DNA of 39,359 nucleotides from Candidatus Nanopelagicales bacterium. GTDB taxonomy: Bacteria > Actinomycetota > Actinomycetes > S36-B12. A program made the translations under genes and the position numbers. Within the stretch, counting starts at the first letter, position 1. Every line of letters begins with the position of its first letter. The stretch lies in NCBI GenBank assembly GCA_044240285.1, contig JBIHZU010000002.1, positions 1-39,359 of the forward strand, given 5' to 3'. Positions 2,608-30,325 of this stretch are shown in pieces. The notes beneath the pieces were generated by a model. It worked only from the letters and a program-made list of their open reading frames with translations, was not told the origin of the DNA and searched no databases.

Positions 2608-3513
2608 ATGCGTCAGCACATTGCCCGTGCACCTGCGAAGGTCAATCTGCAACTTTCGGTCGGGCCACTCCAAGATGATGGTTTCCACGATCTCGTCACG
2701 GTCTTCCATGCTGTTGCGCTCTTTGACGATGTACACGCGACGGCTGCCGAACCGGGCGCGGGTATCTCGCTCTCGGTCACGGGAGTTCAGCGTGACTTGG
2801 TGCCCCTCGACGCCAGCAATCTTGCTTGGCGCGCGGCACAGGCGCTAGCGAATCACGCGGGCGTTGACCCTGACGTACACCTACGCATCACCAAGGGCAT
2901 CCCGGTCGCCGGTGGCATGGCCGGTGGCAGTGCGGACGCGGCAGCTGCGCTCGTTGCCTGTGATTCGTTGTGGGGTCTGCGCACACCACGAGCCAAGTTG
3001 ATGGAGATCGCGGCAACTTTGGGGTCAGACGTTCCCTTCGGTCTTCATGGCGGCACGGCAATTGGCACCGGTCGTGGCGAGATTTTGACGCCGGTGCTCA
3101 CACGGAGTTCCTTCTGGTGGGTGTTCGCCCTTGCTGAAGGAGGTCTTTCGACTCCGGCGGTCTACGCCGAGTGCGATCGTCTTCGCGCTGGAAGCGCTGT
3201 CGCTGCACCGATGCTCTCCGGCCCGCTTATGTCGGCACTGCGCTCGGGCGACGCGACCGAAGTAGCCAAGAACCTCAGCAACGACCTTGAGCGCGCTGCT
3301 GTGTCACTGCGCCCTTCACTCTCGCGAGTTCTCGGACTTGGTGAGGAATATGCAGCTCTGCGCGCAATCGTGTCGGGCAGCGGACCCACGTGTGCATTCC
3401 TAGCTCGCGATGGCGAGCATGCCTTGGACTTGTCCGTAGCGCTTTCGTCAGCGGGACTATGCCGCACAGTGGTCAGAGCTGCGGGCCCAGTGCCCGGAGC
3501 CACACTTACGTAG
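2608..3513 (+). CDS. ispE: 4-diphosphocytidyl-2-C-methyl-D-erythritol kinase
   Basis: APAKVNLQLSVG N-terminus and the GHMP-kinase loop GIPVAGGMAGGSADAAAAL. The position after rsmA matches other actinobacteria. Confidence 0.9.
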   Translation: MRQHIARAPAKVNLQLSVGPLQDDGFHDLVTVFHAVALFDDVHATAAEPGAGISLSVTGVQRDLVPLDASNLAWRAAQALANHAGVDPDVHLRITKGIPVAGGMAGGSADAAAALVACDSLWGLRTPRAKLMEIAATLGSDVPFGLHGGTAIGTGRGEILTPVLTRSSFWWVFALAEGGLSTPAVYAECDRLRAGSAVAAPMLSGPLMSALRSGDATEVAKNLSNDLERAAVSLRPSLSRVLGLGEEYAALRAIVSGSGPTCAFLARDGEHALDLSVALSSAGLCRTVVRAAGPVPGATLT

Positions 3514-7634: not shown

Positions 7635-8225
7635 GTGGACAGCCCGTGGCTCGTCGTGGGTTTGGGCAATCCGGGGCCTGAATACGCAGCGACGCGTCAC
7701 AACGTCGGCGCGATGGCCGTCGCCACACTCGCATCCCGTCTCAACGAAAGACTCACGGCGCACAAGCGTGGCCGCAGTGACGTTGTCGAGGCCCGCATCT
7801 CGCAGCAACGTTCGGTATTGGCCATTCCGCGCAGTTTCATGAACGAATCAGGTGGTCCAGTTTCTGCCTTGCTCGAGTTTTACAAGGTCGATCCGACTCA
7901 TCTCATAGTTGTGCACGACGAACTAGACATCGCTTTTGCCGCGCTTCGAGTGAAGTTCGGTGGAGGTGACGGCGGGCACAATGGGCTCAAGAGCATCCGA
8001 CGCTCGATCGGCACCGGTGAGTATCTCCGGGTTCGGGTGGGCATCGGACGTCCACCCGGTCGGCAAGACCCCGCTGATTTCGTGCTTCGGGCGTTTGGTT
8101 CTGAAGAGCGCAAGGAACTCCCGGTAGTGCTTGAGCAGGTGGCTGACGCGATCGAGTCTTTAGTTGTTGCTGGTCTTGAACGCACGCAGAACGTGTACAA
8201 CTCCATCGATGGAAAGGCGACATGA
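7635..8225 (+). CDS. pth: Peptidyl-tRNA hydrolase
   Basis: WLVVGLGNPGPEYAATRHNVG and FMNESG motifs. GTG 7635 lies 1 nt after the rplY stop. Confidence 0.9.
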   Translation: MDSPWLVVGLGNPGPEYAATRHNVGAMAVATLASRLNERLTAHKRGRSDVVEARISQQRSVLAIPRSFMNESGGPVSALLEFYKVDPTHLIVVHDELDIAFAALRVKFGGGDGGHNGLKSIRRSIGTGEYLRVRVGIGRPPGRQDPADFVLRAFGSEERKELPVVLEQVADAIESLVVAGLERTQNVYNSIDGKAT

Positions 8226-20197: not shown

Positions 20198-20899
20198 TTG
20201 AATATCCACACGACTCCGAGTCCTGATCGCGATGCCCCTGCAGGCTCGAAGCGGCGCTTGCGCAAGCCGCTGGTTGTGGGGGCCTGTGTGTCGGCAGCCA
20301 CGGTCGTCTGCGGCGGTCTGGTCTTCGTTGCGGGCCAAGCAGTCGCTGGCAATGGAAATCAGGCTATCCAACGGCCCGCTTACTACGCATGTGTGAACGC
20401 GAATGGCGACATGACTCTGACTACTCGAGATGCCTTCTGTGCCGCGGGAGATACGAAGTACACCTGGCGTGGTGCGGGAGCCAGTGGCCCCGCCGGACCG
20501 CAGGGTGACCGCGGGCGTCAAGGCCTCGCTGGTGCTGCTGGCCCTTCCGGTGCCGCTGGCCCTTCTGGTGCTGCTGGTCCTACGGGCCCCGCTGGTCCTA
20601 CGGGTCCTGCAGGCGTGTTGGGCGTCTACACGGTCACAAATTCCGGGACGCTCTACCCCCAAGGCGACTTTCGGTCGTTGACGGCCAGTTGCAACACGGG
20701 CCACTCAGTCTTGAGTGGTGGTTTCGATATGACGGGGAACCCCGGTGATGCGTGGATAAGTTCCGTCAAGGTTACGTCCAGCGCTCCCACCGTGGGTGTC
20801 GATGGTTGGACAGTCACTGTTGTCAGTAACATGCAGTTCATGGTGGCCGCTCCGTTGACAGTCACGGCAATCTGCTCACCAACACCACCGCCCGGTTAA
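20198..20899 (+). CDS. Membrane-anchored collagen-like triple-helix repeat protein
   Basis: TTG start 7 nt after GAGGGAG and an N-terminal TM/signal-anchor (LVVGACVSAATVVCGGLVFVAG). Fifteen uninterrupted G-X-Y triplets (GASGPAGPQGDRGRQGLAGAAGPSGAAGPSGAAGPTGPAGPTGPAG). The C-terminal domain (~95 aa) is beta-rich and contains Cys. Confidence 0.75.
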   Translation: MNIHTTPSPDRDAPAGSKRRLRKPLVVGACVSAATVVCGGLVFVAGQAVAGNGNQAIQRPAYYACVNANGDMTLTTRDAFCAAGDTKYTWRGAGASGPAGPQGDRGRQGLAGAAGPSGAAGPSGAAGPTGPAGPTGPAGVLGVYTVTNSGTLYPQGDFRSLTASCNTGHSVLSGGFDMTGNPGDAWISSVKVTSSAPTVGVDGWTVTVVSNMQFMVAAPLTVTAICSPTPPPG

Positions 20900-26925: not shown

Positions 26926-27909
26926 GTGGGTGACGTAATTGAAGCCAGCGGCTTAGTGAAGCGCTATGGCGAAGTGGTGGCGCTTGACGGGCTTGACCTG
27001 CGCGTATCCGAAGGGACAGTCCTAGGTCTGTTAGGTCCCAACGGCGCGGGCAAGACGACCGCGGTGCGAGTGCTGGCCACCTTGCTCAAGCCAGATGCGG
27101 GCACAGCGAAAGTTGCTGGCCACGATGTGCGGACAAAACCCAATGCCGTGCGCAGATCGATCGGGCTGACGGGTCAGTACGCCGCCGTAGACGAGTACCT
27201 CACCGGTCGAGAGAACTTGCGAATGTTCGGTGGGCTCTACCACCTCAAGCCGGCCTACGTGAAGGCACGTACGGATGAGCTCTTAGAACGGTTCGATCTC
27301 ACGGCGGCGGCGAATCGTTCGCTGCGGACGTACTCAGGTGGAATGCGCCGCAGGCTCGACCTGGCCGCGAGCCTTATTGCCAAACCGCCCATCCTCTTTC
27401 TCGACGAACCTACAACTGGTCTCGATCCAAGATCACGCCTTGGGCTCTGGCAGGTGATTCGCGATCTTGTGGCGGAAGGGACGACCGTTCTGCTCACGAC
27501 GCAGTACCTCGACGAGGCCGATCAGCTGGCCAACGAGATTGTCGTGATCGATAAGGGGCGCGTCATCGCCAAGGGCACTGCAGACATGCTGAAAGATCAG
27601 ATCGGTGGTGATCGCATTGAGATCACCATTGCGGACGTCGCCAAGGCGAATGCGGCAGCGGTGGCACTTCGTTCGGTGAGCACCGGCGAAGTGAGCATTG
27701 AAGATGATCGTCTTTCCGCTCCGGTGAGTGGTGGCTCTACTGTCCTTGTTGATGCGATTCGAGCTCTTGACGCACAAGATGTGGCGGTGACCGATCTCGT
27801 ACTTCGTCGACCCACGCTTGACGATGTCTTCCTATCTCTCACTGGGCACGCAGCCGAAGAGGATAATTCACCGCCACCCCCAAGTCGTCGTCGTGGAAGG
27901 GGGCAGTGA
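26926..27909 (+). CDS. ABC transporter ATP-binding protein (DrrA-like)
   Basis: Walker A GPNGAGKTT, signature YSGGMRRRL, Walker B ILFLDEPTTGLD. Confidence 0.9.
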   Translation: MGDVIEASGLVKRYGEVVALDGLDLRVSEGTVLGLLGPNGAGKTTAVRVLATLLKPDAGTAKVAGHDVRTKPNAVRRSIGLTGQYAAVDEYLTGRENLRMFGGLYHLKPAYVKARTDELLERFDLTAAANRSLRTYSGGMRRRLDLAASLIAKPPILFLDEPTTGLDPRSRLGLWQVIRDLVAEGTTVLLTTQYLDEADQLANEIVVIDKGRVIAKGTADMLKDQIGGDRIEITIADVAKANAAAVALRSVSTGEVSIEDDRLSAPVSGGSTVLVDAIRALDAQDVAVTDLVLRRPTLDDVFLSLTGHAAEEDNSPPPPSRRRGRGQ

Positions 27910-28748
27910 TGACCACCGGTGCACCAGAGATTATGAAGCGGCCAATCATTGGCTGGGGGCTGCATGACGGACTTGTCGTAGCGCGTCGAAATCTAATTCA
28001 GACCATTCGGGTGCCGGAGTTGCTGTTCTTCTCACTCGTACAGCCGGTCATCTTTGTGTTGTTGTTTGCCTATGTCTTCGGTGGAGCTATTCCGATCCCG
28101 GGTGATGATGGCGCAAGCGCCTATCGGGAGTACCTGATGCCGGGCATCTTCGGACAGACAGTGGCCTTTGCAGCCGCTGCCAGCACAGTGGGCTTGGCGG
28201 AAGACATGAAGCGCGGGCTGATAGATCGTTTCCGCGCCCTTCCAATGTCCAGCGGCGCAGTGCTCTTCGGGCGGACGGTGGCAGACACGCTGCGCCAAGT
28301 CCTAGTGCTCACCGTGTTGTCGATCACGGGGCTCCTCGTGGGGTGGCGCATCAACAATGGAATCTTCAACGCGATCCTCGCTTATCTGCTCCTCCTGCTG
28401 TTTGCCTACACCGTGGCTTGGATTGGTTCTTGGATTGGTTTGAAGGTGCCTAATCCAGAGACGGCAAGCACCGCTGGCCTGATCTGGCTCTTCCCCCTAA
28501 CCTTCTTGTCCAATGCATTTGTGCCGATTTCATCAATGCCGGGGTGGCTTCAAGTCGTTGCGGCATGGAACCCGGTCTCGTCGGTTGTTTTGGCTGCCCG
28601 AGAACTCTTTGGCAATCCCACTGGCATTCCTTCGACAGCATGGCCAATGCAGCATGCGGCGCTCTACACGTTGATCTCATGTGCAGTGCTCATTGCGATC
28701 TTTGCGCCGCTGGCAATTAGGAAGTACCGCAGCACGACGAGTCGTTAA
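27906..28748 (+). CDS. ABC-2 type transporter permease (DrrB-like)
   Basis: About six hydrophobic helices. The start (GTG 27906 or ATG 27909) overlaps the ATPase stop. The protein ends ...FAPLAIRKYRSTTSR*. Confidence 0.85.
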   Translation: MMTTGAPEIMKRPIIGWGLHDGLVVARRNLIQTIRVPELLFFSLVQPVIFVLLFAYVFGGAIPIPGDDGASAYREYLMPGIFGQTVAFAAAASTVGLAEDMKRGLIDRFRALPMSSGAVLFGRTVADTLRQVLVLTVLSITGLLVGWRINNGIFNAILAYLLLLLFAYTVAWIGSWIGLKVPNPETASTAGLIWLFPLTFLSNAFVPISSMPGWLQVVAAWNPVSSVVLAARELFGNPTGIPSTAWPMQHAALYTLISCAVLIAIFAPLAIRKYRSTTSR

Positions 28749-28790
28749 GTACGTCTGGGCAACTACCGCTAGCGGGGAAGTTCCCCGTAC

Positions 28791-28983
28791 CGGTTCCGCA
28801 GGCCTGTTCGCCAGCCTGTGCTCCGAGCTTGTACTCCGAGCTTGTACTCCGAGCTTGTACTCCGAGCCCGTTCTCCAGCCCTTCACTCCGGCCCGTTCTC
28901 CAGCCCTTCACTCCGGCCCGTTCTCCAGCCCTTCACTCCGGCCCGTTCTCCAGCCCTTCACTCCGGCCTGTTCTCCAGGCCCA
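28791..28983. repeat. Non-coding tandem array with 12/13/25-bp periodicity
   Basis: Four perfect 25-mers cccgttctccagcccttcactccgg at 28867-28966. They are preceded by three perfect 13-mers (ctccgagcttgta, 28821-28859) and by degenerate 12/13-mers from 28791. A partial unit follows at 28967-28983. Confidence 0.9.
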
Positions 28984-29001
28984 ATTCTCTTGCACCCCCG
29001 T

Positions 29002-29118
29002 AGTTGCTGACTTGTGGCAGTTGGTTTTTCCCAGTTGCTGACTTGTGGCAATTTTCGGAGGTCAAAAAGTTGCCACAACTCAGCAACTGCAAATTCTCGG
29101 TTGCCACAACTCAGCAAC
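29002..29118. repeat. Repeat cassette A: four 17-18-bp sites, two direct then two inverted
   Basis: agttgctgacttgtggca at 29002-29019 and 29033-29050. ttgccacaactcagcaac at 29070-29087 and 29101-29118, which is the reverse complement apart from the central base. Site centres are 31, 37 and 31 bp apart. Confidence 0.9.
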
Positions 29119-29147
29119 AAAGGGTGGAGACTGCCGATAATCGTTAC

Positions 29148-29263
29148 GTTGCCCGGTTATGGCAGTCGCAATCTTGTCATTGCCCGGTTGTGGCAACTTT
29201 TGCTCCCCTCGAAGTTGTCACAACCGGGCAACAAGGAGTCGGGGACTGTCACAACCGGGCAAC
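29148..29263. repeat. Repeat cassette B: paralogue of cassette A with the same geometry
   Basis: gttgcccggttatggca at 29148-29164, attgcccggttgtggca at 29179-29195, and tgtcacaaccgggcaac at 29216-29232 and 29247-29263 (inverted). Centres are again 31, 37 and 31 bp apart, offset 145 bp from cassette A. Confidence 0.9.
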
Positions 29264-29304
29264 AACGCGAAAAATGAGCCTGCCGTTGTGCCGAGGATCA
29301 GCGC

Positions 29305-29346
29305 CCACTGGCGATCAGGAAGCACCGCAGCACGACAAGTCGTTAG
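29305..29346 (+). pseudogene. Orphan duplicate of the ABC-2 permease 3' terminus (13 codons plus stop)
   Basis: cca ctg gcg atc agg aag cac cgc agc acg aca agt cgt tag encodes PLAIRKHRSTTSR*, against PLAIRKYRSTTSR* at 28707-28748. Five of six nucleotide differences are silent. There is no upstream ORF continuity. Confidence 0.8.
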
Positions 29347-29831
29347 CCGGCGTACGCCTCCACGCTGACGACGGTGACGCTCACTGATTTGCCGTTAGCG
29401 AGCTCGTAACTCGCCGAGTCACCCACGTGCTTGCCGAGTACGGCCGCGCCTAACGGAGACGACGGGGAATAGACCTCGACCGACGTGTGGGCAGCTTCTT
29501 CGCGAGATCCGAGCAGGAATGTCTCTTCTTCGTCGAAGTCATTGAACCGCACAGTGATGACTTTGCCGTGTGACACTTCGTCGGGGTGTGAGTCAGGTAC
29601 GCCGATTTGTGAGTTCTCGAGCAGCTGGCGCAACTGGCGGACTCGGGCCTCGTTCTTGCCCTGCTCCTCACGCGCTGCGTGGTAACCACCGTTCTCCTTG
29701 AGGTCGCCCTCCTCGCGCGCGGCTTCGATGCGCTTGGTGATCTCTTGGCGGCGCGGGCCCTCGCGATCAGCAAGTTCCTCGCTGAGTCGGTTGAAGGCTT
29801 CTTGGGTCAACCACGTCACGTGCTCGCTCAT
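29343..29831 (-). CDS. greA: Transcription elongation factor GreA
   Basis: MSEHVTWLTQEAFNRLSEEL coiled-coil N-terminus and a C-terminal FKBP-like domain (SPSSPLGAAVLGKHVGD). ATG start at 29829-29831. Confidence 0.92.
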   Translation of the reverse strand: MSEHVTWLTQEAFNRLSEELADREGPRRQEITKRIEAAREEGDLKENGGYHAAREEQGKNEARVRQLRQLLENSQIGVPDSHPDEVSHGKVITVRFNDFDEEETFLLGSREEAAHTSVEVYSPSSPLGAAVLGKHVGDSASYELANGKSVSVTVVSVEAYAG

Positions 29832-29848
29832 CCGAGCAGGGTACGCGA

Positions 29849-30325
29849 TCAGGCTGAATTCGGTGTCCACGGCTGTTCGGGTGGGAATACGCCGGGGGGG
29901 AACTGTGGGGGAATCACTCGTACGGGTGGTCCACCAGCCTCACAGGCCAGGATTTCGACGGTGTAGGCCGTAGCGAGCGTCCGCAAGGGGTACGTCAATT
30001 GCACGTAGCTCGCACCGGCTGCAAGAGGGATTGTGGCGTACGCAACATCGATGTGGGTCTCGTCCTGTGCACGCAGGATGCACCAGACGTTCGACTCCCC
30101 ATTGCGTCGGATCTCAAAGGTGACGTCGGTGTGTTCGGGGGAGAGGACCTGCCAGGTGAGCACCTTGGATTGGATCTTAGGGGCGGCGAGTTGCCAGGTG
30201 CCGTAGGCGATCGCTGCGCCGAAGGCCGCGATGACGACGACGGCCAAGGCAATAGTCCAGCGCGGCGTCCCTAGCCGATAGCGCTCGGCAATGTGAGGAG
30301 GGACATCCTTGGCCTTCACATGCAC
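29849..30325 (-). CDS. DUF4307 domain membrane protein
   Basis: Single N-terminal TM helix followed by a beta-rich domain. The position between greA and mca matches Rv1081c in M. tuberculosis. Confidence 0.65.
   Translation of the reverse strand: MHVKAKDVPPHIAERYRLGTPRWTIALAVVVIAAFGAAIAYGTWQLAAPKIQSKVLTWQVLSPEHTDVTFEIRRNGESNVWCILRAQDETHIDVAYATIPLAAGASYVQLTYPLRTLATAYTVEILACEAGGPPVRVIPPQFPPGVFPPEQPWTPNSA

Follow-up and report, generated by a model that had tools for sequence, protein, structure and literature searches.

The window analyzed here is the whole 39,359-nucleotide stretch of Candidatus Nanopelagicales DNA in contig JBIHZU010000002.1 (positions 1 to 39,359, forward strand). Between two of its convergent genes, one for an ABC-2 permease and the other greA, lies a 556-bp noncoding insert that is bracketed by two copies of the last 42 nt of the permease gene and carries two hairpin-forming modules of palindromic sites. 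Comparison with relatives shows that the insertion is derived, that it is accompanied by a target duplication, and that it is polymorphic for presence and absence. The sites it contains belong to a previously undescribed, narrowly distributed family of arrays of phased palindromic sites. The insert probably arose by insertion of lineage-specific palindromic repeats that resemble repetitive extragenic palindromic (REP) sequences, their hairpin-forming doublets (REPINs), and bacterial interspersed mosaic elements (BIMEs); the event would be old and would have been followed by precise losses. The junction is made up as follows, in window coordinates.

Positions 27909 to 28748, plus strand: ABC-2 permease gene, 279 aa (PF01061, ABC2_membrane, E = 2.7e-31), with an ATG start at 27909 and an end in the proximal repeat copy with TAA.
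Positions 28707 to 28748, plus strand: left (proximal, functional) repeat copy, ccgctggcaattaggaagtaccgcagcacgacgagtcgttaa; the final A of its TAA is the first base unlike the target.
Positions 29305 to 29346, plus strand: right (distal, orphan) repeat copy, ccactggcgatcaggaagcaccgcagcacgacaagtcgttag; the original permease end, with a TAG that overlaps the stop of greA.
Positions 29343 to 29831, minus strand: greA, convergent on the permease gene (PF03449 and PF01272, GreA_GreB_N and GreA_GreB).

A first-pass annotation made from the sequence of the window had reported that the terminal 42 nt of the permease gene recur downstream, and both copies were read directly at 28707 to 28748 and 29305 to 29346. 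They differ at the six positions it had listed (ccg/cca, gca/gcg, att/atc, tac/cac, acg/aca, and taa/tag, of which tac/cac changes Y to H). A repeat search of the region returned this pair, 88% identical over 41 nt at a spacing of 598 nt, as the only long direct repeat. The similarity is not a matter of chance, as the annotation had also held: the local-alignment score was 57, compared to a mean of 13 and a maximum of 21 for shuffled sequences, and none of 300 shuffles scored as well. The orphan TAG (29344 to 29346) overlaps the stop codon of greA, the open reading frame (ORF) of which terminates at 29343 on the minus strand. No ORF within the insert had a Pfam match at an E value of ≤0.1, which bears out the earlier statement that the 556 bp between the copies contains no recombinase and no credible ORF, and no ORF of ≥30 aa terminates at the orphan stop. 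The permease gene now ends in the proximal copy with TAA, and the TAG copy on the greA side is its original end.

The same structure was found in independent assemblies. Contigs L002, L027, and L026 span the entire insert, and a single junction is seen in each of L004, L006 to L010, and L012. The repeat is longer in the relative L027 (44 nt, 42/44 identical), and the two copies in L002 differ solely by TAA/TAG (41/42 identical). In every filled allele, the left copy is followed by TAA and gtacgtctggg (ccacgtttagg in the sister species), and the orphan copy of the sister species contig, L026, has decayed by 5- and 7-nt insertions. It had been raised at the outset that the repeat might be an assembly artifact. 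Repeats of this kind do break or misjoin short-read assemblies, and L004, L021, and L035 end inside arrays, but at least 10 independent contigs, drawn from ENA, Logan, JGI, and NCBI assemblies, show the structure, and the alignment score lies far above those of shuffled sequences. The probability that the repeat is an artifact of assembly or a product of chance is practically nil.

The polarity of the change was established from empty alleles. An exact-protein look-up of the permease gave both filled and empty contigs (L010 and L012 were reached through greA), and the identical 279-aa permease is encoded by both kinds of allele. L001, L003, and L005 are empty sites, with a single copy that ends in TAG and leads directly into greA. 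The left TAA junction and, after it, the insert are present in L002, L004, and L006 to L009, and the right TAG junction is present in L010 and L012. When metagenome contigs were scanned with the permease, 80 related loci were obtained, 32 of which also carried greA; in 29 of these 32 (permease identity of 50 to 80%), the genes are convergent with a gap of -4 to +20 nt, and L041 and L042 have the same overlapping junction, cgcTAGcc, with a gap of -4. On this evidence, the ancestral junction was tight, and the spacer is a derived feature. The first-pass annotation had proposed this spacerless ancestral arrangement and had recommended a search for an empty junction, which was found in the same species (L001, L003, and L005) as well as in relatives.

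The insertion is older than the split from a sister species that has diverged by ~9%: the metagenome-assembled genome (MAG) WLOK01, which represents this species (L026, permease identity of 90.7%), is filled and has the same TAA left junction. Spacer divergence is in step with that of the flanks in an alignment of orthologous inserts. Within the window's species, empty alleles are nested among filled alleles at 97 to 99% identity. The simplest history would be one old insertion followed by occasional precise loss via the 42- to 44-nt repeats, as deletion between direct repeats is stimulated by palindromes lying between them. Alternatively, the presence/absence polymorphism itself may be long-lived. 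Two relatives with 77 to 78% permease identity carry insertions of other kinds at the permease/greA junction. One is an unrelated 417-nt insertion (L040, 4852 to 5270) with a small membrane-protein-like ORF and TAGCC at both borders, and the other is an unrelated 81-nt hairpin (L044, 3702 to 3784). From these two cases, the junction seems to be insertion-prone.

The 556-bp insert is composed of the following segments, none of which is assigned a strand.

Positions 28749 to 28798: left unique segment, conserved in the aligned orthologous inserts of L027, L002, and L026.
Positions 28799 to 28981: variable-number tandem arrays of a 13-nt unit and a 25-nt unit (GCCCGTTCTCCAGCCCTTCACTCCG, 4.8 copies).
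Positions 28997 to 29124: A-type module of 128 nt with a hairpin fold and four A sites in the order > > < < at 31-nt phasing (29003 to 29021 >, 29034 to 29052 >, 29069 to 29087 <, and 29100 to 29118 <).
Positions 29148 to 29263: B-type module of 116 nt with a hairpin fold and four B sites at 31-nt phasing (29148 to 29166 >, 29179 to 29197 >, 29214 to 29232 <, and 29245 to 29263 <).
Positions 29264 to 29304: right unique segment of 41 nt, from the alignment of orthologous inserts, with no counterpart at the second locus described below.

In each module, two direct sites 31 nt apart are followed, 36 nt on, by two inverted sites 31 nt apart. The inner > and < sites together with ACTTTT/AAAAGT make up a stem of ~23 bp. 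Fold energies were -69 kcal/mol on the plus strand and -74 kcal/mol on the minus strand for the A module (z = -8 and -11) and -77 and -69 kcal/mol, respectively, for the B module (z = -12 and -8). An Rfam scan of positions 28000 to 30000 returned no real family, only subthreshold look-alikes of microRNA hairpins.

The arrays and modules differ between strains. Both the copy number and the unit sequence of the tandem arrays vary among the window, L004, L027, and L002. The 25-nt unit resembles a variable-number tandem repeat, with 4.8 copies in the window (28859 to 28978), ~3.5 copies in L004 (2740 to 2830), the permease gene of which is identical to the window's, and one or two copies in the more distant strains L027 (2600 to 2640) and L002 (6960 to 7010). 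The A sites are arranged 2+2 in the window versus 1+3 in L027, and three B sites have been lost in WLOK01. Both A< sites of the window (29071 to 29118) carry a G>C change (AACTC), with ACAACTCAGC in place of ACAAGTCAGC, and both B< sites (29216 to 29263) read TGTCAC for TGCCAC; L002 retains the consensus forms of the A< and B< sites. Because adjacent sites carry the same private changes, unit-by-unit duplication or gene conversion is indicated. The start of the insert (28749 to 28780, GGGCAACTACCGCTAGCGGGGA) is faintly like positions 3176 to 3202 of L034 (GGGCAACTAGCGGAAGCTAGCGGCGA), an edge that comes after 51-nt B-site repeats. This resemblance (GGGCAACTA..GCTAGCGG) is marginal, as 1 of 500 shuffles was as good and 12 comparisons were made.

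The sites are partly palindromic units of 16 to 19 nt in two flavors, A (TTGCTGACTTGTGGCA) and B (TTGCCCGGTTGTGGCA), whose 19-nt forms are GTTGC-N9-GCAAC and GTTGCC-N7-GGCAAC, respectively. A two-site pattern with the four central bases left free was scanned against one genome per species for 185,579 species. Apart from one unrelated match that is due to chance, its 18 loci came from just two MAGs of freshwater Actinomycetota, CAINMH01 (“Loclat_bin-11151”) and WLOK01. In 19 loci plus the window, there are 116 sites, all intergenic, and the free central bases are exactly TGAC or CCGG in 109 of them. Spacing between the sites of modules is invariably 31/36/31 nt, the number of sites per module varies (2+2, 3+2, 5+2, and 2+4), and A and B sites are never combined in one hairpin. 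Spacers between sites are unrelated across loci and are not complementary; the conserved parts are the sites and the central ACTTTT…AAAAGT. The majority of module loci sit between convergent genes. A literature search for the site sequences returned nothing.

Between orthologous modules of the two MAGs, site cores changed at 5 of 320 positions (1.6%) versus 66 of 479 spacer and loop positions (13.8%), counts that leave out the poorly aligned L027/L026 pair. When all five pairs were pooled, L027/L026 included, the counts were 24/384 versus 131/586 (Fisher P = 2e-12). On these substitution counts, the site cores are under constraint or are in the course of being homogenized. Their conservation points to recognition by a protein. 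Each MAG holds ~9 loci and roughly 50 sites, figures obtained from fragmented assemblies (~200 contigs) in which only loci with two adjacent sites were retrieved. Several contigs end inside or just past modules, namely, L139 (1,577 nt), L140 (1,186 nt), L142 (1,777 nt), L004, L021, and L035. Since modules break short-read assemblies, the copy numbers in the MAGs are lower bounds.

This distribution bears on the first-pass reading of the structure as the attL/attR footprint of an integrase, in which the insertion with an orphaned original end is supported and the integrase is not, as no recombinase and no shared core were found. Under that explanation, the attP site of an element with a tyrosine or serine recombinase would have carried ~41 nt of the permease 3' end, and the integrated element would later have been deleted to its two att arms; otherwise, the insert would be a miniature similar to a cis-mobilizable element (CIME) and moved in trans by an integrase. 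A direct repeat of a gene 3' end with a replacement stop on the left is what such an element would leave, empty and filled alleles coexist, and the dense repeated sites could serve as arm-type binding sites. The window's left copy has the “chromosomal” alleles (it reads gca att … tac … acg) and TAA and its right copy has the other alleles and TAG, which fits a crossover near the right edge of the core. Yet the right-copy variants supposed to come from the element (gcg atc … cac … aca) are seen in other strains as well, both at empty sites and in left copies. The variant bases are population polymorphisms, and the earlier proposal that two diverged alleles had been brought together is unneeded.

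Searches for the element itself were negative. None of the filled alleles contains or adjoins a recombinase gene, no additional DNA is present in the filled alleles of at least 10 contigs, and a full-length element with an integrase, which the annotation had suggested looking for, was not found. BLAST searches with the insert gave no phage match, and the plasmid matches (Rpn nuclease genes in Enterobacter, 84%, to the tandem-repeat part only) are due to chance. In IMG/VR, no match was obtained for the two-site module pattern or for the 29-nt core of the 42-mer; the A-site 17-mer had eight single matches there, approximately the number expected by chance. Of the further copies that had been anticipated, the modules are indeed dispersed, at ~9 other loci per genome without the 42-mer, but the 42-mer core occurs nowhere else in the fetched loci. 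At the second locus, the repeat is a different one derived from its own target, so no att core is shared. A scar of a site-specific integrative element is therefore very unlikely. Among the options the annotation had listed, the last two, a “miniature non-autonomous element mobilised in trans” and something undescribed, come closest to the evidence.

A flanking duplication was also found at a second module locus.

Locus 2: L039 in WLOK01 and L022 in CAINMH01, between an RHS-like gene and a MEKHLA-domain gene.

The order at locus 2 is gene end, an array of ~25-nt tandem units, a B module, and a copy of the gene end that abuts the convergent gene. The direct repeat is 17 to 28 nt as detected and up to 37 nt once both orthologues are reconciled; its sequence (…ggcggctgatcaaggtctgc…) is unrelated to the 42-mer and comes from the local target. 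Modules are all that the inserts of the two loci have in common; their ends and repeats differ. Among the matches listed (at least 10), all contigs of one relative are empty at locus 2, where the empty site measures 37 nt between the genes and already includes a tandem duplication, 24 nt long, of the gene end. The MAGs are slightly closer to each other than either is to this relative, so its empty state may be the ancestral one. An outgroup for locus 2 (P0013) has a different synteny and is uninformative. At several module loci, the last 10 to 25 nt of flanking genes, stop codons included, are reduplicated in short tandem arrays.

Gene-end reduplications: L033, ~300 to 356.
L029, ~7890 to 7960.
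L034, 3180 to 3212.
L023, 1584 to 1625.
L038, 2700 to 2805.
L121, 2950 to 3000.

Reduplications of gene 3' ends with their stops are common at module loci (L033/L029, L034/L023, and L038), as would be expected if there had been no transposition-type insertion at all and slippage had tandemly duplicated the gene end, the copies had drifted into arrays, and modules had later been copied in by conversion or template switching. The two 42-mers would then be the outermost surviving units. The empty allele of locus 2, with its 24-nt tandem duplication of the gene end, is in line with this account, as is the 25-nt array of L022, which appears, by eye, to grade out of gene-end sequence, and arrays clearly grow and shrink unitwise. 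At locus 1, however, the interior of the insert resembles the repeat no more than expected by chance (242 of 500 shuffles were as good), and graded duplication in situ was discarded there as unsupported. The outer copies are the best conserved (41/42 in L002), the opposite of the decay of a tandem array, and intermediate alleles with a duplicated end and no modules were not seen. We regard slippage as an unlikely origin of the locus 1 structure.

Recombination with DNA of a relative was also considered. In one-sided homologous recombination (homology-facilitated illegitimate recombination), a donor fragment consisting of a permease end with TAA and a spacer would have recombined within the permease gene, and its far end would have been joined 42 to 44 nt before the recipient stop. 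Two slightly different alleles of the same end and two intact genes would both be accounted for, with no need of a dedicated enzyme. The problem is shifted to the donor, though, which must already have had a spacer after its permease gene, and no relative was found with a permease followed by a spacer but without greA. Locus 2 would require a second accident of the same sort. This explanation is highly improbable.

The genes flanked by modules offer a candidate for the recognizing protein. Three lineages, those of the two MAGs and one more (L028, L032, and L141/L142), have a DUF559 gene of ~300 aa in the interval from ftsW/rodA to a radical-SAM gene, with a complete A module close by on each side. 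In two further lineages, this slot is taken by homologues with 64 to 66% identity, and the modules are of the B type, on both sides in L139 and as a complete left module plus one B site at the contig end in L140.

Module-flanked DUF559 loci: L028, 4640 to 5889.
L032, 4882 to 6131.
L141, 2297 to 3546.
L139, 123 to 1343.
L140, 97 to 1186.

The A- and B-associated variants are 55 to 58% identical in the N-terminal 180 residues and 77 to 80% identical in the nuclease part. In the AlphaFold (AF2) model of the protein (pLDDT of 93), the C-terminal domain matches the Vsr-like catalytic domain of the homing endonuclease I-Bth0305I (PDB 3r3p) with a TMt of 0.76. The N-terminal 200 residues had no Pfam match. 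An AbiEi_4 DNA-binding domain is present in 3 of 35 aligned family members (the protein and its homologues), and AbiEi-type winged helix-turn-helix regulators bind multiple inverted repeats (PMC7319586). Among the module loci examined, the only module-flanked gene is the DUF559/Vsr-like one, and the repeat flavor tracks the variant of the DUF559 gene that is flanked. A literature search on DUF559 plus “palindromic” found nothing relevant. These observations suggest the module-flanked Vsr-like endonuclease as the candidate protein that recognizes the sites. A partnership of the REPIN kind, in which the place of the REP-associated tyrosine transposase (RAYT) would be taken by a single-copy, vertically inherited protein combining an N-terminal specificity domain with a Vsr-like PD-(D/E)XK nuclease, is a tentative extension of this suggestion that we consider possible, if rather doubtful. 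From its fixed slot between cognate modules, the nuclease would maintain or spread arrays of phased 19-bp A and B sites genome-wide, and new insertions made by the system would carry target duplications of 28 to 44 bp.

As the probable account of locus 1, we favor insertion of REP/REPIN/BIME-like repeats at a junction where the permease and greA stops originally overlapped. The insertion brought a target duplication of 42 to 44 bp, so that both genes kept intact ends. The left copy became the working permease end (TAA), and the right copy was left as a noncoding orphan. Each > > < < module is predicted to be able to extrude a long hairpin, and the arrays keep turning over as units are gained and lost. 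The empty alleles that are nested among filled alleles would be precise deletions between the direct repeats, favored by the palindromes between them. The long duplication may have been made by widely staggered cuts or by a template switch that re-entered upstream of its exit point. Duplication lengths (28 to 44 bp) are near the site spacing (31 to 36 bp), a closeness that for now is taken as coincidence only.

Several observations weigh against this account. To our knowledge, no REP/REPIN mechanism yields a 40-bp target duplication. Copy number appears low, at ~9 loci per incomplete MAG, and almost every module locus of one MAG has an orthologue in the other, with no recent transposition seen. 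A flanking duplication was detectable at only two of the eight module loci tested; the other six had none, not even a decayed one. No defined element end emerges from the comparison of loci 1 and 2, the inserts of which have no terminal sequence in common. Repeat collapse during assembly might, in principle, have produced the three empty contigs of the same species; the outgroup evidence for a derived insertion is independent of them. On the side of the enzyme, the link between protein variant and site flavor amounts to effectively one evolutionary switch, and in neither MAG was a gene flanked by B modules found, despite the many B modules there. A distant DUF559 homologue in Curtobacterium has no flanking modules, so association with modules is not a general property of DUF559.

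Elsewhere in the window, positions 20528 to 20614 contain tandem repeats with a 9/18/36-nt period (GCTGGTGCT, GGTCCTACG). They are probably coding and possibly belong to a collagen-like or Gly/Pro-rich repeat protein.

Among extragenic palindromic repeats, those of the Proteobacteria are the best understood; they are tended by a tyrosine transposase, RAYT. The modules described here are a comparable, anatomically distinct repeat family in uncultured freshwater Actinomycetota. Its distinctive features are phased multisite arms, two specificities, apparent purifying constraint on the sites, a different candidate enzyme, and two insertions with long duplications. If the link to the enzyme is true, it would represent an independent origin of a system made of a domesticated nuclease and a dispersed hairpin and would provide a handle on the origin of long target duplications, which are unexplained even for IS1549/IS1634. 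Locus 1 also indicates that convergent genes with overlapping stops can gain an intergenic spacer undamaged and probably also lose it precisely.

A number of known systems were set against these features. Sigma-54 promoters, dif/Xer sites, integron attC sites, shufflon sfx sites, CRISPR, and parS were set aside as readings of the sites on grounds of sequence, spacing, or host biology. CIME-type elements are att-flanked integrative elements that have lost their recombination module. Like them, locus 1 has a direct repeat of a gene 3' end that brackets noncoding DNA, and empty sites exist; unlike them, it has no core common to other loci and no integrase-bearing relative that could be found, and its content is a dispersed repeat family. 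The inserts also differ from miniature inverted-repeat transposable elements, as they share no terminal inverted repeats and their duplications are 42 to 44 and 28 to 37 nt rather than a fixed 2 to 10 bp. Insertions of IS1549 and IS1634 (IS1634 family) have long, variable direct repeats of 8 to 514 bp, without a mechanistic model (PMC2266710). The target duplications found here (42 to 44 and 28 to 37 bp) are likewise long and variable, and IS1549 is actinobacterial, but the insert has no DDE transposase, terminal inverted repeats, or conserved ends. The module-flanked protein itself is similar to I-Bth0305I, on which its C-terminal domain superposes, and to AbiEi, in that some family members carry AbiEi_4; it has neither a known toxin partner nor an intron or intein context.

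Enterobacterial BIMEs are mosaic intergenic clusters of REP units in both orientations, located at gene 3' ends and often between convergent genes. The modules are similar mosaics of palindromic units at gene 3' ends with a strain-variable number of units, whereas their unit sequences are different, conserved linker motifs are absent, the order is > > < < rather than strict alternation, and the hosts are Actinomycetota. Transposition of the IS200/IS605 type is not known to make a target duplication, in contrast to the two inserts with duplications of 28 to 44 bp found here. With REP/REPIN-RAYT systems (PMC3116915, PMC5581495), the family has in common short extragenic palindromic units that pair in inverted orientation into hairpins, conservation of the unit with variable spacers, several flavors per genome, local tandem clusters, vertical inheritance, and a single-copy gene in a fixed slot flanked by cognate repeats, the flavor of which matches the variant of the flanked gene. 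It departs from them in having at least two sites per arm, phased at 31 nt with unpaired spacers, in place of the classical doublet, and, as far as the fragmented MAGs show, tens rather than hundreds of sites per genome. The flanked gene at the module loci encodes a Vsr-like PD-(D/E)XK protein (DUF559), not a Y1 HUH transposase such as RAYT. On balance, the family is closest to REP/REPIN/BIME elements, from which it is set apart by the absence of RAYT beside its modules and by its long target duplications.

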